The notes under the pieces are model-generated. The model did not search any database. It saw only the letters and a program-made list of their open reading frames with translations, and was not told the DNA's origin. Below are positions 4,575 through 42,228 of a DNA stretch of 64,000 bases, one piece after another. Position 1 is the stretch's first letter. The number at the start of each line of letters is the position of its first letter. The position numbers and the translations under genes were made by a program. The stretch comes from Candidatus Omnitrophota bacterium (GTDB taxonomy: Bacteria > Omnitrophota > Gorgyraeia > Duberdicusellales > 4484-171): the NCBI GenBank assembly GCA_021735045.1, contig JAIPHU010000004.1:2929-66928 (forward strand). The letters are read 5' to 3'.

Positions 4575-5393
4575 ATGATAAAAAAAGAAAAAACTATAGG
4601 TATAGTTGGGTTTGGCAATATGGGATCGGCCTGTGCTCAAGCTATCGCTTTATCTGATAGTTATAAAGTTTTAGTTTACGATAAAAGAAAAAGTATTAAA
4701 TATTGTTATCCTAAAGTAACTAAGGCCAAAAATCTCCCAACACTTATTAAAGAGTCTCAATTGCTTATCTTAGCAATCAAACCCAGAGACCTAGATTTAT
4801 TTTTAGAAAAAAATGCTGCTATTATCTTAGCGACTAAACCTTTATTGATTAGCATTTTAGCTGGAGTTAAGATTAAAACCATTGAAAAAAAATTACCAAA
4901 AATAAAAGTAGTAAGGGCTATGCCTAACTTGGCCGTTAAAGTTAAAGAAGCAGTAACTTTTATTACAGCTGGAAAATTGGCAAAGCAGAAAGACCTAAAA
5001 GAAATAAAAAATATATTTTCCCTGATGGGCTATGTTCTTGAAGGTAAAGAACATACTGTCGATAAGATTACTGCGCTTTCGGGAAGCGGGCCGGGTTTTG
5101 TTTATTATTTTATGAAATCCTTTTATAAAACAGCTCTAAAGATGGGTTTTAAGAAAAAGGAGGCAAAAAAGATAATAGTTCAGACCTTCCAAGGTGCTTC
5201 TAAGTTAGCTTTTGAATCTGATAAAGACTTTTCTGAGCTTCTTGATTTAGTTGCTTCACCAGGAGGAACGACTGAAGCCGGAGTTTCTTCTTTTGATAAA
5301 CTTAAGCTTTCTCAGAAAATATCTAAAGGTCTTTATGCGGCCTACAAAAAAGCAAAAAAGATATCTTTAGGTTCAACAAGGAGGAAGGGTTGA
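4575..5393 (+). CDS. proC: pyrroline-5-carboxylate reductase
   Basis: N-terminal Rossmann motif GIVGFGNMG and the ProC hallmark SPGGTTEAG near the C-terminus. Confidence 0.8.
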   Translation: MIKKEKTIGIVGFGNMGSACAQAIALSDSYKVLVYDKRKSIKYCYPKVTKAKNLPTLIKESQLLILAIKPRDLDLFLEKNAAIILATKPLLISILAGVKIKTIEKKLPKIKVVRAMPNLAVKVKEAVTFITAGKLAKQKDLKEIKNIFSLMGYVLEGKEHTVDKITALSGSGPGFVYYFMKSFYKTALKMGFKKKEAKKIIVQTFQGASKLAFESDKDFSELLDLVASPGGTTEAGVSSFDKLKLSQKISKGLYAAYKKAKKISLGSTRRKG

Positions 5394-6247: not shown

Positions 6248-7149
6248 GCATAATTGTTGTTGGTTCTGTTGGCCTAGATTCAGTAAAAACTCCATTTGGC
6301 ACTGCAAAAAATGTGTTAGGTGGTTCAGCTAGTTATTTTTCTCATGCAGCTAGCTTATTTTCCCAGGTCAATCTAATTGCAACTGTTGGTAATAATTTTC
6401 CTAAAAAATATATAAAACTGTTTAATCAAAGAAATATAAGGCTAGATGGTCTTAAGCAGGTCGCCGGTAAAACTTTTAGCTGGTCTGGCCAGTATAGCTG
6501 GAATATGGCAGATCCTAAAACTATTTCGACTGAGCTGGGTGTCTTTGCTAACTTTCGCCCTAAGCTGCCAGCTCAATATAAGAAAAGTAAGCATATATTT
6601 TTAGCAAATATTGATCCTGAGCTGCAAAAAAATGTATTAGGACAAATCAAAGGCAGAGGATCGAAAATTATTGGTTGTGATACAATGGATTTTTGGATCC
6701 AAAACAAAAAAAAGAAATTATTGAACTTATTGAAAGATATCGATATATTTTTTATCAATGAATCTGAAGCCCGTCAATTAACCCAAGAGCCGAATCTGCT
6801 TAAAGCAGCTCGAGCCATATTAAAGTTTGGGCCAAAAAAAATATTTATAAAGCGCGGCGAGCATGGGGTTTTATTGGTTTCAGGAAAACATTTATTTACT
6901 GCTCCAGCCTATTTGATGGAATCGGTAGTTGACCCTACTGGCGCTGGAGATACTTTTGCCGGCGGGGTTATGGGATATTTGGCAATGACAAAAAGTAAAA
7001 GCATAGATACTTTAAGAAAAGCAGCGATCTATGGTACAATTATGGCAACTTTTGCAGTAGAGGATTTTAGTCTAGAAGGTCTAAAAAAGGTTAGTTCAAT
7101 TAAACTAAAAACGAGAATGAAAAAATTTAGAAAATTAGTTTCGTTTTAA
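6244..7149 (+). CDS. PfkB-family carbohydrate/nucleoside kinase (ribokinase-like)
   Basis: N-terminal GSVGLD motif and the PfkB signature DPTGAGDTFAGG. Confidence 0.7.
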   Translation: MSIIVVGSVGLDSVKTPFGTAKNVLGGSASYFSHAASLFSQVNLIATVGNNFPKKYIKLFNQRNIRLDGLKQVAGKTFSWSGQYSWNMADPKTISTELGVFANFRPKLPAQYKKSKHIFLANIDPELQKNVLGQIKGRGSKIIGCDTMDFWIQNKKKKLLNLLKDIDIFFINESEARQLTQEPNLLKAARAILKFGPKKIFIKRGEHGVLLVSGKHLFTAPAYLMESVVDPTGAGDTFAGGVMGYLAMTKSKSIDTLRKAAIYGTIMATFAVEDFSLEGLKKVSSIKLKTRMKKFRKLVSF

Positions 7150-7150
7150 T

Positions 7151-9934: not shown

Positions 9935-10391
9935 AAAAAAGGCTAGCAAAGCGAAAAAAACAACAGCAAAAAAGAAAACCATAAAGAAAAAATTTAAAAA
10001 AAAGAAAAAAAGATTTTTAAAAAAAGAGTTGAATGCTTATCGAGAAAAACTATTAAATCTTAAGGATGATCTTATGAAGCAAATCCAAGAGATTTCTGAT
10101 GAATCTTTACGCAAATCACAACAGGAAGCCTCCGGTGATATCTCTGCCTACAGCTTGCATTTAGCAGATCGGGCTTCTGACAGTTATGAAAGGGACTTTA
10201 ATTTAGGCTTAGTTTCTTCTGAAAGAAGAATAGTGATGGAGATAGACGAAGCCTTAAAAAGGATCGATGAAAAACAGTACGGTTTTTGCCAGATGTGTAA
10301 AAAACCGATTGCAAAAAGAAGGTTAGACGCTATACCTTATGCTCGATACGGAACAAAATGTCAGAAAAAAATCGAAGAAGAAGAAAGATAG
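9897..10391 (+). CDS. DksA/TraR-family zinc-finger protein with lysine-rich N-terminal extension
   Basis: ATG at 9897 with an AAGGAGG site. It has a highly basic K/T-rich N-terminus and a C-terminal CQMC...RLDAIPYARYGTKCQ TraR/DksA-type finger. It overlaps the ileS 3' end by 38 nt. Confidence 0.65.
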   Translation: MKKKSSQRKKTTKKKASKAKKTTAKKKTIKKKFKKKKKRFLKKELNAYREKLLNLKDDLMKQIQEISDESLRKSQQEASGDISAYSLHLADRASDSYERDFNLGLVSSERRIVMEIDEALKRIDEKQYGFCQMCKKPIAKRRLDAIPYARYGTKCQKKIEEEER

Positions 10392-10833
10392 GCTAAAACT
10401 TCTCCTTACTCCATCTATTGCTTTTTTTATTATTGGCCTGGATTTTTGGATAAAAACTTATCTTCGCCTTAACTTTTCCTTCCAATCCTTCCCCTTAATC
10501 GATAAGTTAGTCTATATTACAGTTGTTTTTAATACCGGTACTGCTTTTGGCTTTTTGCAGGATAAGGCTAACTTGTTGGTTTATCTTACCTTAATTTTAA
10601 TATTAATATTTTTATTTGTTATTAAAAAAGAACAGCAAAAAAGAGTAATTTTTTTAATCGCCACCGGGCTTGTCCTTGGAGGTGCTTTTTCTAATTTAAT
10701 TGATCGTTTGATGCTTGGTGCTGTAGTTGATTATATTGATCTAAAGTTTTGGCCTGTTTTCAATTTATCTGATTCATGCATAACAATTGGGGCAATTCTT
10801 TTAATTATAGATTCATTTCGAAAAAGATCTTGA
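10339..10833 (+). CDS. lspA: lipoprotein signal peptidase II
   Basis: FNTGTAFGFL, NLIDRL and VVDYIDL...FNLSDS motifs. The start is uncertain because the ORF overlaps the dksA-like gene. Confidence 0.8.
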   Translation: MLDTEQNVRKKSKKKKDRLKLLLTPSIAFFIIGLDFWIKTYLRLNFSFQSFPLIDKLVYITVVFNTGTAFGFLQDKANLLVYLTLILILIFLFVIKKEQQKRVIFLIATGLVLGGAFSNLIDRLMLGAVVDYIDLKFWPVFNLSDSCITIGAILLIIDSFRKRS

Positions 10834-11717
10834 TGAAAAAAGTTTTTATAGCTGGCCGAGATGAAGATAAAAAACGCCTTGATAAATTTTTATCTTCTCA
10901 ACTTTCCGATATCTCTCGTTCAAAAATTGCCTCTTTAATCAAAAAAGGTTTTGTTAAAGTAAATCAACAATTTTTAAAAGGGAGTTACTTACTTTCAACT
11001 AACGATAAAGTTGAAATTAAAATACCTGAAGTCGATCAAAGGCTAAAACCTTATAACAAGCCGGTTACAGTACTTTGGGAAGATGAATCTCTTTTGGCGG
11101 TCTATAAACCGCAAGGATTAGTTGTTCATCCTCATGGACAAAATAAAGATAAAACTTTAATTAATGCACTATTGTATAAAGAAAAACAACTTTCTGATAT
11201 TGATCCCGAGAGGCCGGGGGTTGTCCACCGTCTAGATAAAGAAACCAGTGGAGTAATAATTTTAGCTAAAAACAACAAAGTTCATAAACTTTTGGTTGAA
11301 CAATTTAAAAATCGTCAAGTCCAGAAAGAATACTATGCTTTAGTTTGGGGCCAACCTAAAAATGATCAGTTTGAGGTCAATCTTTCTCTGCGCAGAAATA
11401 AAAAAAACCGGCTGAAAATGGAAGTTGGCTTATCTAATTCGAAAAGTGCACATACCAAAATAAAAGTTTTACAAAGATTGGATAATAAGACCAGCCTTTT
11501 GTCGGTATCTCCAAAAACCGGCCGGATGCACCAAATTAGAGTACATTTAAGTTTCCTGGGTTACCCTATAGCCGGGGATAAAAAATATGGTAAAAAAGAT
11601 AACTATAAAAATCTATTTTTGCATGCCTACCGGATAAAGATCAAACACCCTATAGCCGGTAACTTCCTAGAGTTTAAGGCCGAACTTCCCGAGTATTTCA
11701 AAAAATTAATACAATAG
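10833..11717 (+). CDS. rluD: RluA-family 23S rRNA pseudouridine synthase (RluD-like, with S4 domain)
   Basis: An S4-like N-terminus and the catalytic motif HRLDKETSGVIILAKN. The start at 10833 is chosen from the TGATG overlap with the lspA stop; the ORF track extends to 10776. Confidence 0.8.
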   Translation: MKKVFIAGRDEDKKRLDKFLSSQLSDISRSKIASLIKKGFVKVNQQFLKGSYLLSTNDKVEIKIPEVDQRLKPYNKPVTVLWEDESLLAVYKPQGLVVHPHGQNKDKTLINALLYKEKQLSDIDPERPGVVHRLDKETSGVIILAKNNKVHKLLVEQFKNRQVQKEYYALVWGQPKNDQFEVNLSLRRNKKNRLKMEVGLSNSKSAHTKIKVLQRLDNKTSLLSVSPKTGRMHQIRVHLSFLGYPIAGDKKYGKKDNYKNLFLHAYRIKIKHPIAGNFLEFKAELPEYFKKLIQ

Positions 11718-29554: not shown

Positions 29555-30439
29555 ATGAACAAAGAACACTTTCAAGAAAATTGTTATGTTTCCGGCCATA
29601 CCGCCTGTGCAGGTTGCGGACAATCGATGGCAGTAAGAATTGTGATTAATGCTGCCGGCGAAAATACTATTGCTTCAAATGCAACTGGTTGTTTAGAAGT
29701 TTTCTCCAGTAAAGCACCAGAATCTGCCTTTGGCGTGCCTTGGATTCATTCCTTGTTTGAAAATTCTGCAGCTGTAGCAAGCGGGGTTGAAACCGCCCTA
29801 GTTCATCAAGGCAAAAAAGAGAATATCAACATTATAGCCCAAGCTGGAGACGGAGGAACTGCTGATATCGGCCTGCAGGCTTTATCCGGGATGCTAGAAC
29901 GGGGCCATGACATACTATTTGTTTGTTATGACAATGAAGCTTATATGAATACCGGAATTCAGCGTAGTGGCTCAACTCCGTTTAATGCAAGTACTACAAC
30001 TTCACCGGCCGGGAAACAATCAACTGGAAATCCACGGCCGAAAAAACCAATGGTAGAAATTTGTGCCGCCCATCATATCCCGTATTCAGCCACAAGCTCT
30101 GTTGCAAACCCTAAAGATATTGAAATTAAAGTTAAAAAAGCCTTAAAGATTAAGGGGCCAAAATATCTACAAATTCACGTTCCCTGTCCTTTGGGATGGA
30201 GAATAGATTCTTCTCAAACTATTGAGGTTGCAAAACTTGCAGTTAATACCGGGCTTTATCCTTTAGTTGAATATGAGTACGGTAGGTTGACTAAAACTCG
30301 TAAAATAAGCTCACCTAAGCCTGTATCTGAATATTTAAAAACACAAGGCCGCTTTCGTCATCTTCTAAAAGACCAAGAAGCTTTAGCCGCAGTTCAGAAA
30401 GTTGCTGATAAAAATATTGACTACTACGGCTTAAAATAA
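29555..30439 (+). CDS. porB: 2-oxoacid:ferredoxin oxidoreductase beta subunit (TPP-binding)
   Basis: GHTACAGCGQSMAVRI and GDGGTADIG thiamine-diphosphate-binding motifs. Confidence 0.85.
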   Translation: MNKEHFQENCYVSGHTACAGCGQSMAVRIVINAAGENTIASNATGCLEVFSSKAPESAFGVPWIHSLFENSAAVASGVETALVHQGKKENINIIAQAGDGGTADIGLQALSGMLERGHDILFVCYDNEAYMNTGIQRSGSTPFNASTTTSPAGKQSTGNPRPKKPMVEICAAHHIPYSATSSVANPKDIEIKVKKALKIKGPKYLQIHVPCPLGWRIDSSQTIEVAKLAVNTGLYPLVEYEYGRLTKTRKISSPKPVSEYLKTQGRFRHLLKDQEALAAVQKVADKNIDYYGLK

Positions 30440-30450
30440 AACAATAAACT

Positions 30451-30633
30451 ATGAAAATTATAATTGACGAAAACGCTTGTATCGGCTGTGGTTTATGCAT
30501 AAATCTTTGCCCAGAGATTTTTGTTCTCCAAGATAATAATATTGCCAAGGTAAAGTCAAAAGAGCCTTGCGATAAAAACCTTCACAAAATCGCTTCCCAA
30601 TGTCCGGTCAACGCGATCTTAATTAAAGACTAA
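30451..30633 (+). CDS. small 4Fe-4S ferredoxin
   Basis: CIGCGLCINLCP...CPVNAI. Confidence 0.7.
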   Translation: MKIIIDENACIGCGLCINLCPEIFVLQDNNIAKVKSKEPCDKNLHKIASQCPVNAILIKD

Positions 30634-30635
30634 TA

Positions 30636-32045
30636 TTATTGAGGAACTTCTAACTGGAAGGATAATTTATTGCGTAAGTTATTTAGGTATTCAACTCTTT
30701 TTTCTATTTCTTTGTTGGCCTTGAGATCTTGATAGTAGTTTTCTTTTTCTGCCTTAAACTTATCCGGATCAATATCAGTTTTTTCTAACAATTTTACAAC
30801 ATAAACTCCGTTTTTTCTAACTAACGGTTTGCTATATAGTTGGCCTTCTTCTAGGTCAAAAAACACCAGGTCACTTATCTTTTTGCTTAAACCAAAACCC
30901 GGAATATAATTTAGGTATTTAAACGGCTCTGTTTTAGTATATTCAATTTCTTTTCTTTTGGCATACCCTTTTAACTTATTATTTCCGGTTGCCTTAACCT
31001 CTTTTATAATATTTTCTGCCATTTTTTCGGCTAGACTTTCTGCTTGATCTTTAAGATAAACTTTTTTAACTTCATCCTGAATTTGAGAAAATGCCGGGAC
31101 AGACGCTTCTTGTTCATCTATCTTTTGAAAGACAAACACTTGTTCTTTTATCTTAAACGGAGGACTGGTTTCTCCTTTTTCTAAATTAAAAAGAGGTTGA
31201 TTGATCTGCGGTGCAAATCCAATATCCGCAATTGGTTGGTTTACTCCAAAAAAATCAGTTTCTTCTACATCCAGTTCTTTTAAGTCGTCGAGGTTATTAC
31301 CTGCTTCTAAATAGGTTATCGTATTTTCTATCTCTTTTGAACCTGGATCAAGGCTAATGTATTTTACTTTAATCTTTTTTTCTCGCCGAAAAAGGCTTTT
31401 ATTTTCCTGGTAAAAATCTTTCAGCGTAGAAGAGGGAACATTTGCATCTATCTCCAGCAAATCGTAGGGAATCAGTAGATAAGCTATTTTTGCTTCCTGG
31501 ATTTTTATTTTATAAGCTTTTTTAACCTCTTGGTCGGTAACCTTGATGGTAACATGCTTGTTAAATAGTTTTTCTCTTTTTAAGACACTCCGTACATATT
31601 CTTCAAAGTTACGGGCCAAAAAACGCCGGTTCATTTGTCTACCCAAGTATTTTATAAACTGCTGGTATTTGCTGGGCATAAATTCATTGTCCGGGGAAAA
31701 ATAAGGGATTTTCTGGATATGATCGATAACTTCCTGGTCGCTTACTTTAACACTTTCTTTATCGGCTTGATAAAGCAAAAGATAAAAGTTGGCCGCTAGG
31801 CTGTAGATATCTTCAGTGTTGATCGTCTGTTCTTTATCGGCATTCATTAAAAAATAGATTTGTGCTAGTTCAAGATAGGGCAGGAAATCATCTCTGGTTA
31901 TTGGTTTTTCTTTGATTTTTCCGATTATGTTTTCTTTGTTGCCGCGCATAGCCGAACTGCCCCAGAGAACAAAAGCAGGCACGATAATAACTACCATCGC
32001 CCAAAGAATCAGTTTTTTGTGTTTGTCGGTAAGTCGAATAAACAT
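30636..32045 (-). CDS. PpiD/SurA-like periplasmic chaperone / peptidyl-prolyl isomerase family, N-terminal membrane anchor
   Basis: An N-terminal TM helix followed by a long SurA_N-like domain. This is the only long minus-strand gene in the window. Confidence 0.6.
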   Translation of the reverse strand: MFIRLTDKHKKLILWAMVVIIVPAFVLWGSSAMRGNKENIIGKIKEKPITRDDFLPYLELAQIYFLMNADKEQTINTEDIYSLAANFYLLLYQADKESVKVSDQEVIDHIQKIPYFSPDNEFMPSKYQQFIKYLGRQMNRRFLARNFEEYVRSVLKREKLFNKHVTIKVTDQEVKKAYKIKIQEAKIAYLLIPYDLLEIDANVPSSTLKDFYQENKSLFRREKKIKVKYISLDPGSKEIENTITYLEAGNNLDDLKELDVEETDFFGVNQPIADIGFAPQINQPLFNLEKGETSPPFKIKEQVFVFQKIDEQEASVPAFSQIQDEVKKVYLKDQAESLAEKMAENIIKEVKATGNNKLKGYAKRKEIEYTKTEPFKYLNYIPGFGLSKKISDLVFFDLEEGQLYSKPLVRKNGVYVVKLLEKTDIDPDKFKAEKENYYQDLKANKEIEKRVEYLNNLRNKLSFQLEVPQ

Positions 32046-32173
32046 ATTGTTAATATATTAACTAGAATTTAAAAATCTTCAAGCTTTTTCTGTTACACTG
32101 ATTACACAGATAAAATATAGAAATTGAAAAAATAAGATATATATGTTATAAAAGAGGTGCTGTTTGATAATTC

Positions 32174-32532
32174 GGGGGTGAATGGACTCGACCTAAAAGG
32201 CGATGCGAAAAGGAGCATGCCGAGGATGTGAGTTGCCTGCGATAGTGGTACTTGCAAAAAATTAAATGCAGAAAACACATTTAATACCACTCCTGCTTAC
32301 GCTGTAAGTTAAGGAGGCTCTTCTACTTTTCTGCCTCGGAAAGTATAAGAGTTCATTTATGAGGCTCGGAGTAAGCTTTTGCTTTTCGGGTTTACTCTTA
32401 AAACTAAGGAAAGCTGCTTCCTGGTAAATCCTGCCTTTTGGAGCTATCAGGAAAAAGATAAACAAAAGGCTAAGCATGTAGAATCTTTTTGCTGAAATTT
32501 TAGGGACGCGGGTTCGATTCCCGCCACCTCCA
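32174..32532 (+). ncRNA. ssrA: tmRNA (SsrA)
   Basis: The 5' GGGGGUG pairs with 3' CACCUCC including the G3:U wobble. A GGACUCGAC D-loop analogue follows, and the 3' T-arm is GCGGG-UUCGAUU-CCCGC plus discriminator A. No CCA is encoded. Confidence 0.8.
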
Positions 32533-32576
32533 TTTTTTCGACCTATCCGAAAAATCAGTAAACCCGAAACACATTC

Positions 32577-33320
32577 GGGGGACACAATACTTAATTAGTT
32601 GACACTGTATTAAGGAAAAGTATAATACAGGTATGCCAAGAATAGCACGAATTATAGCCGAAGGCTACCCACATCACATAATACAGAGAGGAAACCGCCG
32701 CCAAAAAGTATTCTTTCAAAATAGAGACTATCAAGAATATCTAAAACTTTTAAGCCAACATTCAGCCAAAAACAACCTTTCTATAGCTGCCTATTGTTTA
32801 ATGCCTAATCATGTCCATATTATAGCTATACCAAACAACAAACAAGGCCTAGCCAAGGCAATAGGAGAAACCCACAGAAATTACACCCGAATGGTAAATT
32901 TCAGAAAAAACTGGCGCGGATACCTTTGGCAAGGAAGGTTTAGTTCATATATTATGGATGAAAAACATTTGTATGCAGCGGTAAAGTATATCCTCAATAA
33001 TCCAACAAATGCAAAGGGAAAAATAACAGAAAATGTCCTAGATTACCGCTGGTCAAGCATTCATCATCATACTGGAAAAGAGAATATACCTTGGCTAAAA
33101 GATGATATATTGCAAAACATGATAGATGATTGGAGTCAATATCTAAATGAAGGCCAAGACAATAAACAGATAGAGCTTTTAAAAAAACATGAACGCACCG
33201 GCCGCCCATTAGGAGATAATAATTTTATAGAAATACTTGAGAAGAAATTAGGAATAAGCTTAAAAAAGAAAAAACCAGGGCCAAAGAAAAGAAGGGGAGA
33301 TAATTAAGTATTGTGTCCCC
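32577..33320 (+). mobile_element. IS200/RayT-like element: Y1 (HUH) transposase gene flanked by perfect 20-bp inverted repeats GGGGACACAATACTTAATTA
   Basis: IR copies at 32577-32596 and 33301-33320 (reverse complement). An internal promoter TTGACA-16-TATAAT ends 7 nt before the ATG at 32633. Confidence 0.7.
32633..33307 (+). CDS. IS200-like / REP-associated Y1 tyrosine transposase
   Basis: MPRIARIIAEGYPHHIIQRGNRRQ..., the HUH motif NHVHIIAIP and a catalytic-Tyr region LDYRWSS. Confidence 0.8.
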   Translation: MPRIARIIAEGYPHHIIQRGNRRQKVFFQNRDYQEYLKLLSQHSAKNNLSIAAYCLMPNHVHIIAIPNNKQGLAKAIGETHRNYTRMVNFRKNWRGYLWQGRFSSYIMDEKHLYAAVKYILNNPTNAKGKITENVLDYRWSSIHHHTGKENIPWLKDDILQNMIDDWSQYLNEGQDNKQIELLKKHERTGRPLGDNNFIEILEKKLGISLKKKKPGPKKRRGDN

Positions 33321-33490
33321 GGAATTATTGATTAAGCCTCTTTTTTATAATTACGTTATTTTTTTTATCTTTTCATCTTTATGCTTCGACATCTCCCATC
33401 CAATTAGATACAATTGATTATTCAAGCGCCCAAAGACAAGGTTATCCGACCGATGAAGAACTTATAAGTTTAGCTACTGAGAAAGGACTA

Positions 33491-33931
33491 TTGCCTGAAT
33501 CTAATTCTGATTTTGATTTGAAAAAGCATGTGAGAAAAGGGAATACCTTAATTATTTGGCTTGTATCTCCCAGGCAATACAAAATAGATTTAGTTGACCA
33601 GCTCAAAGAAATGAATTTTAATAAAGAAGGTGCTACCATAAGTAATCCTTCTGCTTACTATGTAGACCAAATAAATAATGTTATTTATATTTCATTAAAA
33701 AATAATCAAATCAAAGGCTATAACAAAAAAGGGATAGGAGAAATATTTAAAACAATAGCAATACAAGAGGGTAATTTTAATACTAATGATGGCAGAAACG
33801 CTATGGAGATAATGAGAGATTATTGGGGAGAAGAAGAAATTGAATGGTACAAGAAGGCTTATCCGGAGAAGTTTAAGGCTTTGATAGAAATAAATAAAAG
33901 AAAAAGAAATACATACCATGTGCCAAAATAA
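33491..33931 (+). CDS. hypothetical protein (TTG start in ORF track; upstream frame open from 33332)
   Basis: No recognisable domain. The upstream in-frame stretch encodes a hydrophobic signal-peptide-like segment but has no canonical start codon. Confidence 0.4.
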   Translation: MPESNSDFDLKKHVRKGNTLIIWLVSPRQYKIDLVDQLKEMNFNKEGATISNPSAYYVDQINNVIYISLKNNQIKGYNKKGIGEIFKTIAIQEGNFNTNDGRNAMEIMRDYWGEEEIEWYKKAYPEKFKALIEINKRKRNTYHVPK

Positions 33932-34035
33932 GAATAGGAGATCAAACCTTCAAACTTAACTTGATTTTATTGTTAGTGGATATATAATGACACATAGGTT
34001 TATATAAATTAAAAAATATATAAAAAGAAATAAGC

Positions 34036-34413
34036 ATGCCTACAGAGCAAAACAACAAATCTAATAAGATTTCAATTTCATCCTCTAATAAGGAAGTATT
34101 ACATTCAGGAGCTGTTCATACCTTTAGTGCTAACGATCTCCAATTCAAGCTAGAGGGTTTAACTTTCATTTTTAGTTTTATAGATGATGGGGGTAAACAA
34201 CGGATAGAAGGATCTACTTCTTCTGATAAACAGTTGAATATAAAGCTTTTCAATTTCACAAACCCATTAGGAACTGGTTTAATTAAACCGAAAAGGATAG
34301 GTTCGTATAAGCATAGAGAGCTTTTTATTGCTTTCACTGTCTATGCACTTAATAAAAAATCTACCAAGTTGTTTAATTATACTTTTTTTGTAGGAGATGA
34401 AATAGATGACTGA
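34036..34413 (+). CDS. hypothetical protein
   Basis: 125-aa ORF with no recognisable domain. Confidence 0.4.
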   Translation: MPTEQNNKSNKISISSSNKEVLHSGAVHTFSANDLQFKLEGLTFIFSFIDDGGKQRIEGSTSSDKQLNIKLFNFTNPLGTGLIKPKRIGSYKHRELFIAFTVYALNKKSTKLFNYTFFVGDEIDD

Positions 34414-34693
34414 AGAAAAGAAAAAAGAGGAAAAAAGTCAAAAATCTAATGTTACGGAATCAGGATTGACAGGAAAAATTTCTGAAACTATAGGGACGGG
34501 GCCGCATGCTCAGACAGCTATAACATGGCTTGTGATAAAATGGAGTTTTATCGTAGGTTCTGCTTTAACGATTATTATTCTAATAGCTGCAAAGTACGAC
34601 ATATGTGAATTTATATTTGCAAATATCTGGTCTGTGTTTGGGTCAATAATTATGCTTGCCCTAGGTTACTTATTTGGAAAAGGAAAGGAGTAA
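34406..34693 (+). CDS. small two-TM membrane protein, hypothetical
   Basis: 8-nt overlap with the upstream ORF; two hydrophobic helices. Confidence 0.4.
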   Translation: MTEEKKKEEKSQKSNVTESGLTGKISETIGTGPHAQTAITWLVIKWSFIVGSALTIIILIAAKYDICEFIFANIWSVFGSIIMLALGYLFGKGKE

Positions 34694-34875
34694 TGCATAT
34701 ATTTACGGGGAACTATTTTTATGCGATGATCTTTTTATTGGCGAAACATAGTTTATAAAAATAAGTCACCCAATCGAACTTTCTTTAGCATAAACCTTAA
34801 AAACATCCTTCTTTGGCCTTATCTTAGGAGACAAGAATAACATGTCTCCATATTTGACAATACCCACAAAACAAC

Positions 34876-35097
34876 CTACCTCAATCGTTCAGAACCTCTC
34901 ACTTCTCCCCACAAATCGTTGAATTCTTGATAAGCAGAGGAGTCGGCTGGGTTATATTCGAAGATCAGATCACCTGAATAATGCTCGTAGATTAAAATTT
35001 CATCGTTTTCTTTTACAATATCCACGGCTACACTGTTTGTAACCAATTCCCACCTCCGAGGTGGGAATTTTTTTGTTGAGAGCGTTTGGAAAACCAT
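34876..35097 (-). CDS. hypothetical small protein (possible remnant); the ORF track extends it to 35349
   Basis: The C-terminal 50 aa look protein-like. The 5' part overlaps the + strand HEPN gene and would contain the 33-bp palindromic repeat in frame. Confidence 0.25.
   Translation of the reverse strand: MVFQTLSTKKFPPRRWELVTNSVAVDIVKENDEILIYEHYSGDLIFEYNPADSSAYQEFNDLWGEVRGSERLR
35041..35074 (+). repeat. 33-bp palindromic terminator-like repeat, copy 1 (AACCAATTCCCACCTCCGAGGTGGGAATTTTTT)
   Basis: Perfect 10-bp stem TTCCCACCTC/GAGGTGGGAA with a T-run. It is identical to copy 2. Confidence 0.8.
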
Positions 35098-35189
35098 GGT
35101 TTTTTTGCTTTGCCTCAGCTTAAGCATGCGATATAATTTAATTAATGAATATTCCAGAAAATGCGGGTTCCGTATATTAATCACTGTAC

Positions 35190-35858
35190 ATGAAAAAAAC
35201 AAGACAGGAACAAAAATTTGAAAAATATAGAGAATATCTAAATTCGGAAACGCAACTTCTCTGGCAATATATATCATTATATAAACATCTTCATAAAAAA
35301 GTACAGGATAGGCTAGACGAAATAAACATAGCTCCTGCTTTTTTCTCAACAGTTCAGAGTGCCCTCTTTACATGCATTGTTCTATGGATACATAATCTTT
35401 TTTCTGAAGAATCACAACGTGGCCTTCATGATTTTTTAAACTTTATTGAAAGTAATCTTAGCACTTTTAAACTTAGTGAATTAAAAAGGCGAAGAGAATT
35501 TTCTGATAATCATTGGTTCCTAAAAAAAATAACGGAGTTAACAAAATCAGACATAAGTGGACATCGAGCTATGCTTAAATCTATAAAATTATTGAATTCT
35601 ATAAAAACACGACGGGACAAATATCATGCACATTTTGACAAGAAGTATTTTTTCAACAGAGAAAAGATAAATAAAGAAAAACCTATTTTGTGGAAGGATC
35701 TTGATGAAATAAAAGAGCCAATGGAAAAAATTATAAACACTTATTCTGTGGCTTATGACGGAAGCTCATTTAGTATACAATTTGTTAATGCTTATGATGT
35801 TGATAGGATTTTAGATATCTTGCATGAATATAGAGAAAAAAGAAAAAGGCGCACCTAA
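35190..35858 (+). CDS. HEPN-domain protein, Abi-like (putative RNase toxin)
   Basis: A 222-aa alpha-helical protein with a C-terminal R-x4-H motif (TRRDKYHAHFD) characteristic of HEPN. Assigned by pattern, not by alignment. Confidence 0.45.
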   Translation: MKKTRQEQKFEKYREYLNSETQLLWQYISLYKHLHKKVQDRLDEINIAPAFFSTVQSALFTCIVLWIHNLFSEESQRGLHDFLNFIESNLSTFKLSELKRRREFSDNHWFLKKITELTKSDISGHRAMLKSIKLLNSIKTRRDKYHAHFDKKYFFNREKINKEKPILWKDLDEIKEPMEKIINTYSVAYDGSSFSIQFVNAYDVDRILDILHEYREKRKRRT

Positions 35859-36055
35859 TTGTTTTTAAATCATCCACGGCCAACCAACACCACCAGATCC
35901 TTCAGATAGGAAGGCGAATGTTTATAAGATACTGCCGTTGAGTGAAGCGGTAAGAAGGTAGAAGTTAGAGGGGAGAAGTTAGAAAGAATTTAAACAATTG
36001 GAGGTCACAAATTGTGATGTCCAATAGATAAAAGCTAAAAAGGTAATTAAAATTT

Positions 36056-36718
36056 ATGTTGTATCTTTATTTAGATGAAAGCGGTGATTTAGGTTTTGAT
36101 TTTGTTAACAAAAGGCCTTCTAAGTTTTTTACTATATCTATTTTAGTTATAAGAGGCGCAAAGAAAAGAAGACAGGTAGCTAAAAGTGTAGAAAGAACCA
36201 TTAGAAAAAAATTAAATCCGAAAAGCAAGCGGAGGAGAATGGTTCAAGAATTAAAAGGCACATCAACAACGTTAGAAATCAAAGAGTATCTATATAAAAG
36301 AATAAAGAAGATAGATTTTTCTATTTATAGCATAACCTTAAATAAAAGGCGAGCTTATAGCTATTTAATTAAAGATAAATCAAGAATTTATAATTTTATA
36401 GCACGCAGTATTCTAGATAAAGTTGATTTTTCTGATACCAAAAATAGAGTTATTTTGACAATTGATAAGAGCAAGAGTAAGCCTCAGATTAAAGAATTTA
36501 ATGATTATATTTATAACCAATTGGAAGCTAAGATAGATCCTAAAGTTTCTTTATATATAGAGCATGCAGATTCTTGTGCAGATAAATGTTTAAACGTGGC
36601 GGATTTATTTAGCTGGGGAGTTTTTAGAAAACATGAGAGAAAGGATTCTCTATGGTATGATTTATTTGCAGAAAAAGTTGAATTTGATCAAATATATTTG
36701 CTCCAAAATAAAAAATGA
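36056..36718 (+). CDS. DUF3800-family protein
   Basis: The N-terminus MLYLYLDESGD is the hallmark DE motif of DUF3800. Confidence 0.65.
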   Translation: MLYLYLDESGDLGFDFVNKRPSKFFTISILVIRGAKKRRQVAKSVERTIRKKLNPKSKRRRMVQELKGTSTTLEIKEYLYKRIKKIDFSIYSITLNKRRAYSYLIKDKSRIYNFIARSILDKVDFSDTKNRVILTIDKSKSKPQIKEFNDYIYNQLEAKIDPKVSLYIEHADSCADKCLNVADLFSWGVFRKHERKDSLWYDLFAEKVEFDQIYLLQNKK

Positions 36719-36851
36719 GCGGACCCTGCGAGTTGAGCGTTAAAGCTTTTGCCAACCAGATGGAAGGGAACACTTTAACAACTCGCAACGGAATTACCGC
36801 TCAAGTTAAATATACAATATGGGGATGACAAAGTCAAGTTATTTTTGAACT

Positions 36852-37358
36852 ATGAAACCCGGCGACATTCTACTATTCAAAGCAGAGCGTGATTTTGTTT
36901 CTCGGCTGATTGCTTGGGGGACTGGAAGCAAATATTCCCACGTGGCAATTTGTGTATCTCCGAAGATGCATCTAGCAATTGAGGCGATTGCCAGAGGCGG
37001 GATCAGAGCTAGGGATATTAGAAAGATCCCCAGAGATTATGATCTTTATAGGGTAAAGGAAGATTATTCTTATAATCTAGATGGTGTTATTTCTTATCTA
37101 GTTGATAAGCTCAACGAAAGATATGATTATCCCGGTGTTCTCTGGTTAGGATTTATAAAGTTACTTGCAAAGACCGGCCTTCCGTTTAAAGTTACAGCTA
37201 ACAATTGGCAGAAGCGGCGAGATCATTTTTGTTCAGAGCTTTGCTCTGAAGCATTCTTCTATGGCGGAGGGCTAGATATTGTGCCAGAACAACCAGCAGC
37301 GAACATAACTTCCCCGGCCGATATTGCGAATAGCTCAGTCATAGAAACTGTACAATAA
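36852..37358 (+). CDS. permuted papain-like amidase, YaeF/YiiX (peptidase C92 / DUF830) family
   Basis: GDILLFK...YSHVAI (His) precedes FCSELCSE (Cys), the permuted His-before-Cys order of the C92 family. Confidence 0.55.
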   Translation: MKPGDILLFKAERDFVSRLIAWGTGSKYSHVAICVSPKMHLAIEAIARGGIRARDIRKIPRDYDLYRVKEDYSYNLDGVISYLVDKLNERYDYPGVLWLGFIKLLAKTGLPFKVTANNWQKRRDHFCSELCSEAFFYGGGLDIVPEQPAANITSPADIANSSVIETVQ

Positions 37359-37389
37359 CCAATTCCCACCTCCGAGGTGGGAATTTTTT
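37357..37389 (+). repeat. 33-bp palindromic terminator-like repeat, copy 2
   Basis: Identical to 35041-35073. It overlaps the TAA stop of the amidase gene. Confidence 0.8.
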
Positions 37390-37567
37390 GCCCCAATCCA
37401 AAGCAGGTGGTATAATTATAAAAACAACAACAGACACCTTTTTAATAAAGTAAATCCTGATAAAAGTCATCTGCGGAAAGAAACAGAAGAGGGGCCTTCT
37501 CGCTGAAAGTTAAGTAGTACGTGTCACGGATTTTTTTAAACAAGTTTATAAGAAGGAGGAAGAGTTA

Positions 37568-38494
37568 ATGGATAGAGCTAAAAGTTACACTATTATATCT
37601 GCATTATTTCTTGGTATAGCAAATATTTTATACTGGTTTATTCTTCCGCTAATCTTTGCGTTGAAATACCCTGGTGGTCTACGAGGACCGATTATGCGTT
37701 GTATGGTTTCGCCTTCGTTAGAAATAAAAGTAATTATTTATATCATATCAGGGTTGGTGATTTTAGGGATGATCTTGTTTATTACCGGTATTATAATTTC
37801 TTTTACGAAGAAAAACTGGAGTAAACTGTTAATAATTATTACTACGATTTTAGTATTTATGTCTATTCCTTTTATGTTTCATTTAGTAAAATTTTTTGTT
37901 GGTTCAGTAAAAAATTTTCGATATTCAATCAGTTCTTATATTGGTCCCGCATCGATTTCCAGAGATATGTCATCATGGAAGATGTTTAAAAGCCAGAGCG
38001 ATAAGTATAAAATTCAATATCCACCAGAGATGGTAAAAACTCGATTTTATTACCGTAATCCTGAAGAGACCAAAGGTTTAAAGAAGGGTCGCCCTTATGA
38101 TTTCACATCATTCGTTTTAAAGGAGAATAATTATTCTGGAAAAAAGTATTACCCGTTTGAAGTTTATATAGGCGTACATCTAAATGAGGAAGGCTTATCG
38201 CCTTTAGCATTTGAAATAAACAAAGTTAAACAGAACCAAAGAGAAATAAGTAATTACCAGGTGCTGTCAAAATCAAAAATTAACATTGCTGGAGTAGAAG
38301 GTGTAGTAGATCATACATTAGTAAAAAAAGGAAATGATGCCAAACGATTTGTAAGGTATTTTATTCCTTACAAGAATGAGATGATAATAATTGTTGGTTT
38401 AATTGGCAAGGAAAAAGAATATATCCCCGAATACCATAAGACCTTTATGGACATGCTTTCGACTTTTAAATTTATGCCAAAAAAAAGAAAATAG
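37568..38494 (+). CDS. hypothetical membrane protein (4 N-terminal TM helices + soluble C-terminal domain)
   Basis: AAGGAGG ribosome-binding site; hydrophobic N-terminal third; no recognisable domain. Confidence 0.5.
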   Translation: MDRAKSYTIISALFLGIANILYWFILPLIFALKYPGGLRGPIMRCMVSPSLEIKVIIYIISGLVILGMILFITGIIISFTKKNWSKLLIIITTILVFMSIPFMFHLVKFFVGSVKNFRYSISSYIGPASISRDMSSWKMFKSQSDKYKIQYPPEMVKTRFYYRNPEETKGLKKGRPYDFTSFVLKENNYSGKKYYPFEVYIGVHLNEEGLSPLAFEINKVKQNQREISNYQVLSKSKINIAGVEGVVDHTLVKKGNDAKRFVRYFIPYKNEMIIIVGLIGKEKEYIPEYHKTFMDMLSTFKFMPKKRK

Positions 38495-38636
38495 GGGCAG
38501 CAATCCAATTAACTCCTTACACAATCCTGCCTTTTTGTTATAATACTGCTTAGATAAAACAAGGACAAGATAAAACAGAAACAGACATCTTTTATATCGC
38601 AGAGCGCAAAGCGCTTAGCGCAGAGCAAATTAGAAA

Positions 38637-40556
38637 ATGATTAGGTTAAATAATATTTCTAAAAGTTACGGAGTAAGGACCCTGTTTGACGGGATCAACC
38701 TTACAATCAATCGGGGCCTCAAGTGTGGCCTAGTGGGGCCAAATGGTGCCGGAAAAAGTACTCTCTTTTCGCTGATTCTTGGCTCACAAGAACCAACTTC
38801 CGGGCAGGTGCAGATAAAAAAGCAGGTCTCGATTGGATACTTGCCTCAGGAGATGTCTTTTGAGTCTAACGATTCGGTCTTATCCGAAGCTACCAAAGGG
38901 GATCACTCGATGCGGCGGATGGTTAAGGAGAAGAAAAAGCTGGAAGATGCCGGTAAGGCTGGCTCAAAAAAGTATGGCGACATATTACATAAGTTAGAGT
39001 TTAAGGGGTATTTTCAGTTAGAGCATAAAGCGGAGAAGATCCTCACCGGCTTAGGCTTTACCGAAAAGATGCTGGCACAACCGGTAAACGAACTTTCCGG
39101 CGGCTGGGGAATGAGGATCTATTTAGCCCGGCTTTTAACTTCCCATTACGATATCTTGCTTCTTGATGAACCGATGAACCATCTTGATTTAGCGGCGGCG
39201 TTATGGTTTAAAGACTATCTGTTAAAATTTAACGGAACCTTTATTATGATCTCCCACGATAAGGATTTCTTAGAACAAGTAACCGATCATATCTTAGTAT
39301 TGGAAAATGAAACGATCACTAAAGTTAAAGGTAACTATCAGAATTATGAGAAGATACAAAGCCAAAAAGCAAGCCATCTGTTAAAGCAAGCAGCAGAACA
39401 AGCCAAGAAACGCAAACAACTGCAAGATTTTATCGCTCGTTTTCACGGCCAGCCGACTAAAGCTGCCCAGGTCCGGGCAAAGAGAAAGATGATTGAGAAG
39501 ATGGAAAAGATTGACCTGCCTTTCCGACGCAGGGAAAGTGTGAGAAACTTCCAATTTCCCGGTACTAAAAATAGCGGCTATCAAGTTATTCGTTTAGAAG
39601 ATGCCTCTAAATCCTATGGCGATCTAAAAGTATACCAAAATCTTGATTTTGAGATTGTCCGTCAGGAAAAAGCAGTCTTAGCCGGTATTAATGGGGCCGG
39701 CAAGTCTACTTTGTTAAAAATATTAGCCGGAGAAATTGATCTTGATTCTGGCCGGCGCCGGGTAGGCAGTAATGTCGGTATCGGCTATTTTTCCCAGAGG
39801 AGAATGGAGATGCTCAGCGCCTCAAATACAGTCTTTGATGAAGTCTATTCTGCTGCGGAGGGAAATTGTTCGGAACAAAGAATCAGGACAATCTTAAGTT
39901 TATTCTTGTTTACCGGCGATGATGTTAGCAAAAAGGTAGAAATTTTATCCGGCGGAGAAAAGAGCCGTCTTATTTTAGCCAAACTATTGATTAATCCACC
40001 TAATTTTCTGTTACTGGATGAGCCGACCATTCATTTAGATATTGATGCTACCGAGGCTTTGATCCGCGCCCTTAAGGTTTATCAGGGAACTTTAGTCTTT
40101 ATTAGCCACGATATCCATTTTGTCCGTTCGGTAGCTAATGTCGTTTATGAGGTTCGCAATGGTAAAATCAGAAAATTTCCCGGCAATTTTGATTACTATT
40201 GGCAAAGAGCCAAGGAGAAAGGTTTTGTGGAAGACGCAAATTACAAACAGCCGAAACCGGCTAAAAAAGTAAAGTCAGCTCGAGATATTGCGAAAGAAGA
40301 AAAAAAATTAGAAAGGCAAAAAATTAAACAGCAGCAAAAGCAGAATGCGGCTCTTTCAAAAAAGATAAAAGCTTTACGCAAAGAAAAAGAAAAAATAGAA
40401 ATCGACCGGAATGTAAAAGCACGAATTTTATCTAACCCCCGTAGTTACCATAATAAGAAGATGGTTATTGATTATGGAGCTAAACTGAAAGTAATCGAGC
40501 AAAGGCTTAAAGCCATAGATGCTGAAATAGCGAAGCTGGAAGGTTCTTTTCTGTAG
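38637..40556 (+). CDS. ABC-F family ATPase (tandem ABC domains, no TMD; Uup/YheS/EttA-like translation factor)
   Basis: Two Walker A motifs GLVGPNGAGKST and LAGINGAGKST, two LSGG signatures and a C-terminal coiled coil. Confidence 0.85.
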   Translation: MIRLNNISKSYGVRTLFDGINLTINRGLKCGLVGPNGAGKSTLFSLILGSQEPTSGQVQIKKQVSIGYLPQEMSFESNDSVLSEATKGDHSMRRMVKEKKKLEDAGKAGSKKYGDILHKLEFKGYFQLEHKAEKILTGLGFTEKMLAQPVNELSGGWGMRIYLARLLTSHYDILLLDEPMNHLDLAAALWFKDYLLKFNGTFIMISHDKDFLEQVTDHILVLENETITKVKGNYQNYEKIQSQKASHLLKQAAEQAKKRKQLQDFIARFHGQPTKAAQVRAKRKMIEKMEKIDLPFRRRESVRNFQFPGTKNSGYQVIRLEDASKSYGDLKVYQNLDFEIVRQEKAVLAGINGAGKSTLLKILAGEIDLDSGRRRVGSNVGIGYFSQRRMEMLSASNTVFDEVYSAAEGNCSEQRIRTILSLFLFTGDDVSKKVEILSGGEKSRLILAKLLINPPNFLLLDEPTIHLDIDATEALIRALKVYQGTLVFISHDIHFVRSVANVVYEVRNGKIRKFPGNFDYYWQRAKEKGFVEDANYKQPKPAKKVKSARDIAKEEKKLERQKIKQQQKQNAALSKKIKALRKEKEKIEIDRNVKARILSNPRSYHNKKMVIDYGAKLKVIEQRLKAIDAEIAKLEGSFL

Positions 40557-40632
40557 TGAGCTTGCCAAAATATCTTTTAATTAATAGTTGTTTTGGTATA
40601 ATTAAGCAAAAGAATAGATTATAAAAAAACCT

Positions 40633-41490
40633 ATGAAAATAAGTCAAATACTAAACAGTACCGAGCGTGGTGTGGCTTTTGAATTTTTCCCTCCCCGAAG
40701 CCAGAAATCAGCAGCAGCACTTAAAAACACCCTGAAAGCATTAAAAAAATATAACCCCTTATATGTTTCGATGACCTGCGGAGCCGGCGGGAGTAGTTAT
40801 GAAACTACCCAGGATGCGGTAAATATTTTACTGGAGGAGAAAGATTTAACGGTAATGCCCCATCTTACTTGTCTGAGCACCGAACCTTCCGCAGTTCGCG
40901 AGATACTTCAAAATTATAAAGATTTAGGAATTGCCAATATTATGGCTTTGCGGGGTGATATCTTACCCGAATCTGAGGAAGCTAATCTAGCCGGTGAGTT
41001 TAAATTCGCTAAAGATCTAATCAAGCTAATTAAAGAGGATGGCCATTTTGATATCGGGGCTGCGGTTTATCCCGAGGGCCATATTGAAATGAGATCCTTA
41101 GATCAAGATCTAAAATATACCAAAGAAAAGATAGATTGCGGAGTCGATTTTGCCGTAACCCAGATGTTTTTTGATAATCAATATTATTATCAGTTTTTAG
41201 AAAGAGCCCGCAGTAACGGAATCAATATCCCGATTTTACCGGGAATTTTACCGCTAACCAATATCGCAAAAGTCAAAGAATTTGCTTCAATTTGTCGAGC
41301 TACTATCCCTGCACAGATCGAAGAGAAATTAAGTCGTTTTTCAAAAAACCCTAAAGACATGCAAAAGGCGGGAATCGAGTTAACGATTAAACAATGCAAA
41401 GATTTGATTGACCATGGCCACCAGCGTTTGCACTTTTTTACATTGAATAAAGCCAGCGTAATGCAAGAGATAATCGATGCCTTATTTTAA
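40633..41490 (+). CDS. metF: 5,10-methylenetetrahydrofolate reductase
   Basis: FEFFPPRSQ N-terminal motif; TIM-barrel MTHFR pattern. Confidence 0.85.
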   Translation: MKISQILNSTERGVAFEFFPPRSQKSAAALKNTLKALKKYNPLYVSMTCGAGGSSYETTQDAVNILLEEKDLTVMPHLTCLSTEPSAVREILQNYKDLGIANIMALRGDILPESEEANLAGEFKFAKDLIKLIKEDGHFDIGAAVYPEGHIEMRSLDQDLKYTKEKIDCGVDFAVTQMFFDNQYYYQFLERARSNGINIPILPGILPLTNIAKVKEFASICRATIPAQIEEKLSRFSKNPKDMQKAGIELTIKQCKDLIDHGHQRLHFFTLNKASVMQEIIDALF

Positions 41491-41725
41491 GAATATCATG
41501 AAAAAAACCGCCTTATTTATTTTAATTGTTTTTTTGCTAGCAGGATGCGGAAGACGACGGGAATCGCTGCGCTACGATCGGAGAGAAACTGCCTTGATAG
41601 CAAAAGAGCAGAGGATAAATAGCCAGACAGAAATCCTGATCGACGGAGCAATTATCGGCGGCGGCCTGGTGCTCTTAATTAGCCTAATCGGCTTTGCCGT
41701 CTTCTACTCTCTAGGAAAAAAATGA
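41477..41725 (+). CDS. small lipoprotein, hypothetical
   Basis: Lipobox LLAGC and a C-terminal TM helix. Confidence 0.45.
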   Translation: MPYFKNIMKKTALFILIVFLLAGCGRRRESLRYDRRETALIAKEQRINSQTEILIDGAIIGGGLVLLISLIGFAVFYSLGKK

Positions 41726-42228
41726 AAAAGAAAGTAACAGTTAATGACAAGATGCAACGGGGTTATAGCTATTATTTGACTGAACCAATAGGAAAGAACT
41801 TTGATCCTGAATTTCAGCCAGAACTTACACCAAAAGAAATGTTAGAGTTGGGGGTTTTTGGGGGTAAATACATGACCGATTGCCAGAAAGAGTTTCCCAG
41901 CTCTTGGTATAAAAAAGCTAAACTCTGTGCCGAAGAACACGATCCACAGCTAAACTATTTTGGCGTAAATGCCAGCCAGCCGCTTGCTGTATGGCGCAAA
42001 AAAGGCTGGATTTATAAAGATGACCCGCGGGGGTGGTTTCAGTGGTATTGCCGTTATTATATGGGAAGGCGGATTCAGGAAGAAGACAGGCGCCAGATAA
42101 AAAGACAGAAAGCAATTAAAAGACACATCGCCCAAATTAAAAAGAACTGTAAAAAAGGTGACCTTAACTGCCGGCCCAAACAGCGCCAAGCAGTCTTAAA
42201 CTGGGCCTATGATAGCAGGAAACTATAA
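41722..42228 (+). CDS. conserved hypothetical protein (WFQWYCRYYMGRR motif)
   Basis: 168-aa ORF overlapping the upstream stop. I cannot assign a family. Confidence 0.45.
   Translation: MKKKVTVNDKMQRGYSYYLTEPIGKNFDPEFQPELTPKEMLELGVFGGKYMTDCQKEFPSSWYKKAKLCAEEHDPQLNYFGVNASQPLAVWRKKGWIYKDDPRGWFQWYCRYYMGRRIQEEDRRQIKRQKAIKRHIAQIKKNCKKGDLNCRPKQRQAVLNWAYDSRKL

Follow-up and report, generated by a model that had tools for sequence, protein, structure and literature searches.

Genes of the DUF3800 family are known to be accompanied by structured RNAs: 11 unrelated RNA structures were described beside them by Weinberg et al. 2017 (PMC5737381), who offered no function for any. The association of DUF3800 genes with the DUF3800-V motif was catalogued in 2017, and the papers searched report no function for it. 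A literature search for later work on the DUF3800-I, drum and skipping-rope RNAs likewise retrieved no functional data. The DUF3800 domain has also been recruited to retron type VII, Cas12a2/a3 and Cas13 loci, and earlier remarks in the literature note its resemblance to RNase H2. The locus considered here lies in a stretch of 64,000 nucleotides (hereafter, the window) from a Candidatus Omnitrophica metagenome-assembled genome (MAG). It carries three co-directional open reading frames (ORFs) of 222, 220 and 168 aa, encoding proteins MCF7873551.1 to MCF7873553.1, which are related to the HEPN_AbiU2, DUF3800 and Peptidase_C92 families, respectively. The original prediction proposed that these genes form a single defence or toxin-immunity cassette delimited by two identical palindromic repeats.

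The ORF list agrees with that prediction on the three genes, their orientation and their coordinates, and the literature searched assigns no function to DUF3800, as it had stated. The grouping of the three genes into one repeat-bracketed cassette does not withstand an examination of gene neighbourhoods. With a probability of about 0.8, the 2.35-kb stretch is rather a mosaic of independent units (Table 1). As judged from sequence comparison, its only conserved module is the DUF3800 gene together with a convergent DUF3800-V RNA, a new instance of the known pair. The HEPN_AbiU2 gene is a single-gene abortive infection (Abi) candidate separate from this pair.

Table 1. Features of the 2.35-kb stretch, in window coordinates
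Feature	Position	Strand	Basis
Left 34-nt repeat, intrinsic terminator hairpin	35040..35073	+	Exact repeat, terminator scan, fold
Promoter-like sequence preceding the HEPN gene, TTGCCT-16-TATAAT	35110..35137	+	Scan, 10/12 positions, consensus match only
Stand-alone HEPN_AbiU2-family gene, predicted RNase (MCF7873551.1)	35190..35858	+	Pfam PF18734
Palindrome TCACAAATTGTGA, operator-like, ~40 nt upstream of the DUF3800 start	36005..36017	.	Read from sequence
DUF3800 gene, predicted RNase HII-like nuclease (MCF7873552.1)	36056..36718	+	Pfam PF12686, fold
DUF3800-V RNA (RF02964), 97-nt rod-like structured small RNA (sRNA)	36712..36808	-	Rfam, own covariance model
Sigma-70 promoter of the sRNA: -35 TTGACT 36837-36832, -10 TATATT 36814-36809, 17-nt spacer	36809..36837	-	Scan
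Permuted NlpC/P60 (C92, YiiX-like) hydrolase gene (MCF7873553.1)	36852..37358	+	Pfam, H30/C127
Right 34-nt repeat, ancestral terminator copy	37356..37389	+	Kept with downstream DNA in L003

The DUF3800 gene and its companion RNA

The region downstream of the DUF3800 gene had been left as a plain intergenic gap. A gap does separate the DUF3800 stop codon from the C92 start codon, but it is occupied by a DUF3800-V RNA that had been overlooked. The Rfam model RF02964 matches over its full length (model positions 1-96) with 68.6 bits against a gathering threshold of 37.4 (E 2e-13), and our own covariance model, built from the Rfam matches in 18 loci, gives the window RNA 94.9 bits. The RNA is convergent with the DUF3800 gene, and its 3' U-tail runs 7 nt into that gene across the stop codon; the terminal U-run is complementary to the codons for the C-terminal lysines of DUF3800. 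No other credible RNA emerged from an Rfam E-value search of positions 34700-37700, in which the 197-nt spacer between the HEPN and DUF3800 genes gave no match, and no tandem repeats were reported in the region. The window locus has the same fold and the same gene adjacency as the described DUF3800-V motif and DUF3800 gene (RF02964; PMC5737381), from which it differs in nothing essential. The features documented here are the fixed convergent geometry, the conserved sigma-70 promoter, the persistence of the RNA after gene decay and the embedding between hsdM and hsdS.

The association was followed in a sample of 80 genome loci from the same DUF3800 subfamily, with up to 8 kb of flanking sequence on each side (82 loci in the profile search). 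The RNA was detected by Rfam in 18 of the 18 DUF3800 loci tested and by our own covariance model in 79 of the 80 genome loci; in the sole locus without a match (L065), a contig end cuts the RNA site, as it also does next to an intact DUF3800 copy of L025. All intact DUF3800 genes whose downstream DNA is present are accompanied by the RNA (80/80), which was also found beside genes located on a Tenderia plasmid (43% identical) and on an IMG/VR contig (38% identical). It is always located on the strand opposite to the DUF3800 gene and, for 80 of the 82 copies linked to DUF3800, the distance between its 3' end and the stop codon ranges from -20 to +26 nt. In three cases where the gene is disrupted (L005, L007 and the last of the four L045 units), the RNA is kept nonetheless, as it is at one site devoid of the gene (L025).

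Covariation supports the proposed structure. Among 84 RNA copies, 95.4% of the cells are paired versus 79.5% in shuffles; compensatory changes affect 24 of the 27 pairs, a value reached by none of 500 shuffles, and controls with slid partners collapse. G-U pairs are frequent (at one position, 70 of 83 sequences have U-G) and would not pair in the complementary sequence, which shows that the RNA was annotated on the correct strand. Unpaired loops are conserved too, for example GGUAAG and GUGUUCCC...UCCAUC. In most loci, a TTGACA-17-TATAAT promoter ends a few nt before the RNA, and a match to at least 10 of its 12 positions was found for 62% of the RNA copies versus 0.7% of fragments drawn at random from these loci. 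The sequences upstream of the DUF3800 genes are not conserved family-wide and a co-directional gene often abuts DUF3800; therefore, the unit can be taken to begin at the start codon and to end with the promoter of the RNA, which gives ~0.8 kb (36056-36837 in the window).

This arrangement could be that of a mere cis-antisense regulator, acting in a type I-like manner by pairing with a read-through 3' untranslated region or by promoter collision. Such a role would suit the convergent orientation, the RNA end that abuts the stop codon, the strong RNA promoter and the absence of a terminator between the gene and the RNA. However, the coding overlap is minimal, given the range of RNA ends reported above, and the selection acting on the fold and on the two loops would be needless for pure antisense pairing. 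Antisense regulation as the only role of the RNA is thus considered unlikely.

Some loci of the sample carry several units or additional motifs. L045 (array at 6990-11134) harbours three intact 1012-bp tandem DUF3800-RNA units that share ~72% nucleotide identity, plus a fourth in which the gene is decayed and the RNA intact, and L055 harbours two tandem units (7126-8745). A DnaA-box consensus (TTATCCACA, in either orientation) lies 40-45 nt upstream of 10 of the 84 RNA copies, where the background rate predicts ~0.24. Its position is fixed, just upstream of the -35 box of the sRNA promoter or overlapping it, and the loci concerned are mostly of Patescibacteria type (L018, L020, L023, L027, L029, L034, L037, L040, L070 and L080). 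This suggests, from motif position, that DnaA controls the sRNA in this subclade.

The protein encoded by the pair matches the DUF3800 profile PF12686 with 37.5 bits (E 5e-9, cut-off 21), and the domain call of the original prediction thus holds. In an alignment of 30 homologues, the N-terminal motif YLDESGDLGFD is invariant, as are residues D7, E8, D137 and H170, and D183 is nearly so. A confident AlphaFold model derived from this alignment (predicted local distance difference test 86.8, predicted template modelling score 0.86) has a type 2 RNase H-like fold: its top structural matches are RNase HII, H2A and HIII, with which Foldseek agrees (1eke, E 7e-6), PIWI and RuvC being more distant. 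Searched against PDB sequences, the DUF3800 profile matched no chain. According to this predicted structure, the DUF3800 protein is an RNase HII-like nuclease, and the invariant D-E...D...H set is consistent with an active metal-dependent enzyme. It shares its fold with the type 2 RNases H, with 8-16% identity in the structural alignments; however, these are housekeeping enzymes, whereas DUF3800 is accessory, horizontally mobile and equipped with a dedicated RNA partner.

Members of the tight family to which the DUF3800 protein of the window belongs (~216 aa, 1469 database matches) share 45-65% identity across phyla, their hosts including Omnitrophota, Elusimicrobia, Planctomycetes, delta-proteobacteria, Nitrospirae, Patescibacteria, Firmicutes, Actinomycetes and archaeal bins. 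From these sequence comparisons, the DUF3800-RNA module is shown to spread horizontally. Such an extreme spread, together with a compact unit with sharp boundaries and an RNase H-like fold whose distant matches include PIWI and RuvC, could evoke a selfish mobile or RNA-guided element comparable to IscB and TnpB with their omega-RNAs or to the IS110 elements with their bridge RNAs. However, the RNA shows no variable single-stranded segment of guide length, and the edges of the module showed neither terminal repeats nor target duplications. The protein is small and closest to RNase HII, not to a transposase, and the multiple copies are diverged tandem units (72% identity) instead of identical dispersed ones. 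A mobile or RNA-guided nature of the pair is therefore most improbable.

No close homologue of the DUF3800 protein was found in curated phage genomes, and none of the known Rfam DUF3800 motifs was detected on 20 viral contigs that carry distant relatives. The sRNA-Xcc1 motif (RF02221) is linked to integron attC sites. One viral or prophage contig carrying a distant DUF3800 relative (L111) has two matches to this motif downstream of the gene (4826-4910 and 8341-8425), one of them ~240 nt past the DUF3800-relative gene, which may therefore belong to an integron cassette array.

Upstream of the DUF3800 gene of the window, the palindrome listed in Table 1 is shared with L005 (about 503-515) and absent from L003; from its sequence, it could be an operator. 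In an Elusimicrobia-type subclade (L043, L045, L049, L055, L058, L059, L060 and L075), a conserved hairpin (CCCGACAG...CTGTCGGG) followed by GCCTGCTATGCTAT is located ~30-60 nt upstream of DUF3800 and may represent the subclade's own promoter or operator for this gene.

The three genes and the flanking terminators

The HEPN gene is not a regular neighbour of the DUF3800-RNA pair. Exact-sequence searches with the three proteins gave 1-kb Logan contigs at most, which carry no neighbourhood information. A tblastn search with the HEPN protein gave no match in the 80 DUF3800 loci, and a profile hidden Markov model (HMM) built from 24 HEPN homologues gave none in the 82 DUF3800-RNA loci, flanks included. 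A C92 gene lies 3' of DUF3800 in only three of these 82 loci (L003, L004 and L005), which are near relatives from the same Omnitrophota lineage with a DUF3800 protein 84-97% identical to that of the window. Even among these three loci and the window, the gene upstream of DUF3800 differs in every case. The HEPN gene holds this position in the window, L003 has a gene for an unknown protein of 249 aa, L004 one for a member of the beta-lactamase family, and L005 an unannotated ORF of 92 aa. The similarity between the window and L005 starts 5 nt past the HEPN stop codon. The sister genome L003 retains DUF3800, the RNA and C92 without the HEPN gene or the left repeat.

Taken together, the three genes are not syntenic in related genomes, so the trio is refuted as a unit and its cloning as one cassette would therefore be misdirected. 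A single cassette could still be defended on the grounds that the genes are co-directional within a variable island, that no terminator is predicted between HEPN and DUF3800, and that other families of RNase H-fold nucleases have been reported to share operons with HEPN families. Against this stand the lack of co-occurrence with HEPN in the 82 loci, the solitary occurrence of HEPN homologues, the inheritance of C92 as a vertically transmitted Omnitrophota gene found without the two others, and the arrangement in L003. One functional cassette delimited by the repeats is therefore extremely improbable.

The HEPN call itself was borne out by the HMM search. The protein matches HEPN_AbiU2 (PF18734) over profile positions 2-186 of 193 (E 6e-17, 62.1 bits, cut-off 26.8), and its R141, R142 and H148 are invariant among 24 homologues, H146 being nearly so. 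This makes it a full-length member, with the R/H motif kept, of the AbiU2-type HEPN proteins described by Anantharaman et al. 2013 (PMC3710099). Like other members of this family, it is of a type found alone or beside restriction-modification (R-M) or mobile genes. Its homologues, of which 69 were retrieved, stand alone in four unrelated contexts: after a haem-biosynthesis operon, between yhdP and a DEAD helicase gene, beside a Y1 transposase gene and beside a DDE transposase gene. The GC content is ~28-30% in the HEPN and DUF3800 genes versus ~40% in the flanks and in C92, and the 90%-identity clusters contain 32 members for C92, nine for DUF3800 and one for HEPN. These data suggest that the HEPN gene is a recent acquisition, made independently of its neighbours as a single-gene element. 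By analogy with its relatives, it most plausibly acts as a stand-alone Abi RNase: a single HEPN-AbiU2 integron cassette from Vibrio mimicus was found to confer resistance to T4 and T7. The published data concern other members of the family; the window protein matches no PADLOC Abi model, and its activity is a predicted one.

The assignment of the third protein to the C92 family holds as well, although its own match to Peptidase_C92 (PF05708) is below the cut-off (21.8 bits versus 27, E 2e-4) and aligns the N-terminal half only, and it scores far under the cut-offs of the NCBIfam equivalogs. On the other side, His30 and Cys127 are invariant among 22 homologues, in the permuted order with His before Cys, and most homologues carry a precomputed PF05708 match, one of them being named YiiX/YebB-like NlpC/P60 hydrolase by NCBI. 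The protein can thus be read as a divergent member of the family. Among its 326 homologues, those with a named organism come nearly all from Omnitrophota. Genes encoding C92 were found without DUF3800 in L092 (C92 88% identical), in L096 (where it follows greA and a gene for a U32 peptidase) and in L099. An unannotated 220-aa ORF beside the C92 gene of L099 was considered as a hidden DUF3800 and discarded, there being no Pfam match for it and no RNA match at the locus. As judged from this distribution, C92 is a resident, vertically inherited and lineage-conserved Omnitrophota gene located outside the module. The DUF3800-RNA module would have inserted next to it in an ancestor.

The repeats are exact, as announced: the 33-mer occurs exactly twice on the + strand of the window (35041-35073 and 37357-37389), none being expected by chance (100 shuffles), and the identity is in fact one base longer, i.e. 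34 nt. The statement that the right copy supplies the TAA stop codon of the C92 ORF was also verified on the sequence. Each copy consists of a perfect hairpin with an 11-12 bp stem, including five GC pairs, and a 3-nt loop, followed by 6-7 T; it folds at -18.9 kcal/mol (z = -3.3). A scan of the + strand scores it as an intrinsic (Rho-independent) terminator, at which termination is predicted.

The two copies have different histories. A single diverged ortholog of the right copy is found in L003 (10670-10703, with mismatches at 6 of 34 positions), where it is followed by the same DNA as in the window (37390-37442). It is located there 4.6 kb past C92, beyond Fic, LemA and M48 genes. The junction between C92 and the terminator in the window coincides with an ATAAC sequence common to both L003 sites, which suggests a deletion or an insertion at this microhomology. 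By sequence comparison, the right copy is the ancestral one. The left copy forms the left edge of the strain-specific HEPN segment and has no counterpart at this position in L003. Given also its identity with the right copy, it probably represents a recent duplicate or conversion product, which would have arisen when the HEPN segment recombined in. The repeats are thus terminators located at cassette boundaries of a recombining island and do not delimit a functional or mobile unit.

An alternative would be that they are attL/attR-like attachment or recombination sites of a small mobile cassette inserted as a block. Exact direct repeats 2.3 kb apart, a nearby Y1 transposase gene, and a diverged and inverted hairpin of the same type located 7 nt upstream of DUF3800 in L004 might be taken in this sense. 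However, the block would include a host gene (C92) and no recombinase gene lies between the repeats; L003 harbours the DUF3800-RNA-C92 block without the left copy; and the C92-to-terminator junction resembles a microhomology event. In addition, the repeat is a canonical terminator sequence and is not dispersed, as a metagenome-wide scan retrieved a single unrelated occurrence. Attachment sites are therefore very unlikely, and the repeats are better viewed as terminators.

Two other identities were considered. A dispersed element resembling a repetitive extragenic palindrome (REP) or a miniature inverted-repeat transposable element was rejected: the window has only its two copies, and the scan, which used a degenerate pattern, yielded one match, a terminator beside a tRNA gene of a different organism. 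As regards an integron attC site, the repeat lacks extrahelical bases when inspected by eye, its hairpin being perfect and followed by a T-run. The tRNA-linked terminator (L100, 6551-6577), which shares the same 27-nt hairpin core (AATTCCCACCTCCGAGGTGGGAATTTT), lies on an unrelated metagenome contig that also bears an IS200-like gene; the shared core probably results from convergence.

Possible function of the DUF3800-RNA pair

Both HEPN_AbiU2 and DUF3800 are defence-associated in the literature, so that the link to defence made by the original prediction has a basis in published work. Insertion within R-M operons is a pattern described for many Abi and HEPN genes. The DUF3800-RNA unit is enriched next to R-M genes. 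In the sample, its immediate upstream neighbour is the gene for HsdM, a type I methyltransferase, in 7-8 of 70 loci; on the downstream side, a gene for HsdS was found in 3 of 71. Other neighbours encode Eco57I/MmeI-type (type II) enzymes, type III restriction helicases, DUF1016, RhuM, RadC, Y1 transposases and baeRF proteins. The DUF3800 proteins of retron type VII, of Cas12a2/a3 loci (TPR-DUF3800) and of Cas13 CASK loci (Csx32) share with that of the window the same Pfam domain, the RNase H-like fold and a defence context. However, they are fused or adjacent to reverse transcriptases, TPR domains or Cas proteins, whereas the window protein is a bare 220-aa domain with the sRNA as its sole constant partner and neither a reverse transcriptase nor a cas gene nearby.

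A comparable association of a protein with an RNA is found in type III toxin-antitoxin (TA) and Abi systems such as ToxIN and AbiQ. These also combine a nuclease with a structured and highly expressed RNA, are encountered in defence or mobile settings and are transmitted horizontally; in the DUF3800 pair, moreover, the RNA persists where the gene decays. Type III antitoxins are tandem repeats located upstream of the toxin gene, on the same strand and separated from it by a terminator, and are processed by a Kid/Barnase-like endoribonuclease. By contrast, the DUF3800 pair has a single 97-nt hairpin, convergent and downstream, and an RNase HII-like protein, so that it does not belong to type III as defined. 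It does not fit type I either, since DUF3800 is predicted to be a 220-aa soluble enzyme fold and not a small hydrophobic peptide, and the RNA overlaps its coding region by at most ~20 nt.

Strictly convergent geometry, an autonomous consensus promoter for the RNA, persistence of the RNA, frequent embedding in type I R-M operons and an RNase HII-like fold lead to a testable two-component hypothesis, which can be drawn as follows. The abundant sRNA would bind the nuclease via its conserved loops and keep it inactive, in the manner of an RNA antitoxin. Any disturbance of RNA synthesis or stability, for example by a phage, would free the nuclease, which would then cut RNA or RNA:DNA hybrids. An antitoxin-like role is favoured because the RNA was never found missing beside an intact gene and yet outlives the gene, because the RNA has a strong promoter whereas the gene relies for its expression on whatever precedes it, and because the domain recurs as an accessory in retron and Cas loci. 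RNA-protein binding, toxicity and a role in defence are all inferred, and the mechanism is put forward tentatively, at somewhat less than even odds. The broader proposal, that DUF3800 proteins and their cognate sRNAs form a widespread and unrecognised class of RNA-protein TA or Abi systems, is possible but doubtful. If true, it would account both for the 11 unrelated RNA folds that accompany one protein family and for the recruitment of the domain to retrons, Cas12a2/a3 and Cas13 loci. Some other ribonucleoprotein function of the pair is an alternative.

Several observations weigh against parts of the interpretation given here. No experiment links DUF3800 or its RNA to toxicity or phage defence, the papers searched assign no function to DUF3800, and the RNA is single-copy and convergent, unlike the repeats of type III antitoxins. 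Most neighbours of the DUF3800-RNA module are housekeeping genes. The asymmetry between gene and RNA rests on four cases, and disrupted genes in MAGs may be sequencing errors. None of the three proteins gives a match above noise to a system model of PADLOC-DB v2 (zero matches for DUF3800 and C92, and a marginal one, E 0.005, between HEPN and a homing-endonuclease model). The AbiU2 protein of L. lactis was not toxic in E. coli. As regards the mosaic structure of the locus, the scan predicts no terminator between HEPN and DUF3800 in the window, so that local co-transcription and some local interplay of these two genes are possible.

The surrounding island

The locus was described from the outset as a non-core island next to ssrA with an insertion sequence nearby, and this description is accurate. 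The transfer-messenger RNA (tmRNA) gene ssrA (32174-32535) is directly followed by an IS200-like Y1 transposase gene (32633-33307; Pfam Y1_Tnp, E 1e-14), and the locus belongs to a hypervariable island downstream of ssrA. No direct repeat of the tmRNA 3' end, as would be left by an element integrated in ssrA, was found in 30000-42000. On either side of the transposase gene lie 25-nt inverted repeats with 96% complementarity (32573-33325), and a related sequence precedes the ortholog of the terminator in L003 (10640-10660). This layout resembles that of REP-associated tyrosine transposases.

The same island contains an ORF with a strong DUF6864 match (34036-34413, E 3e-30), flanked by two ORFs without any Pfam match (33491-33931 and 34406-34693); all three are absent from the sister genome L003. 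Sequences of ~50-65 nt found upstream of an ABC-F gene in the window (38498-38636) are repeated twice in L003, at island boundaries (2713-2768 and 10735-10858), as further dispersed repeats of the variable region of this lineage.

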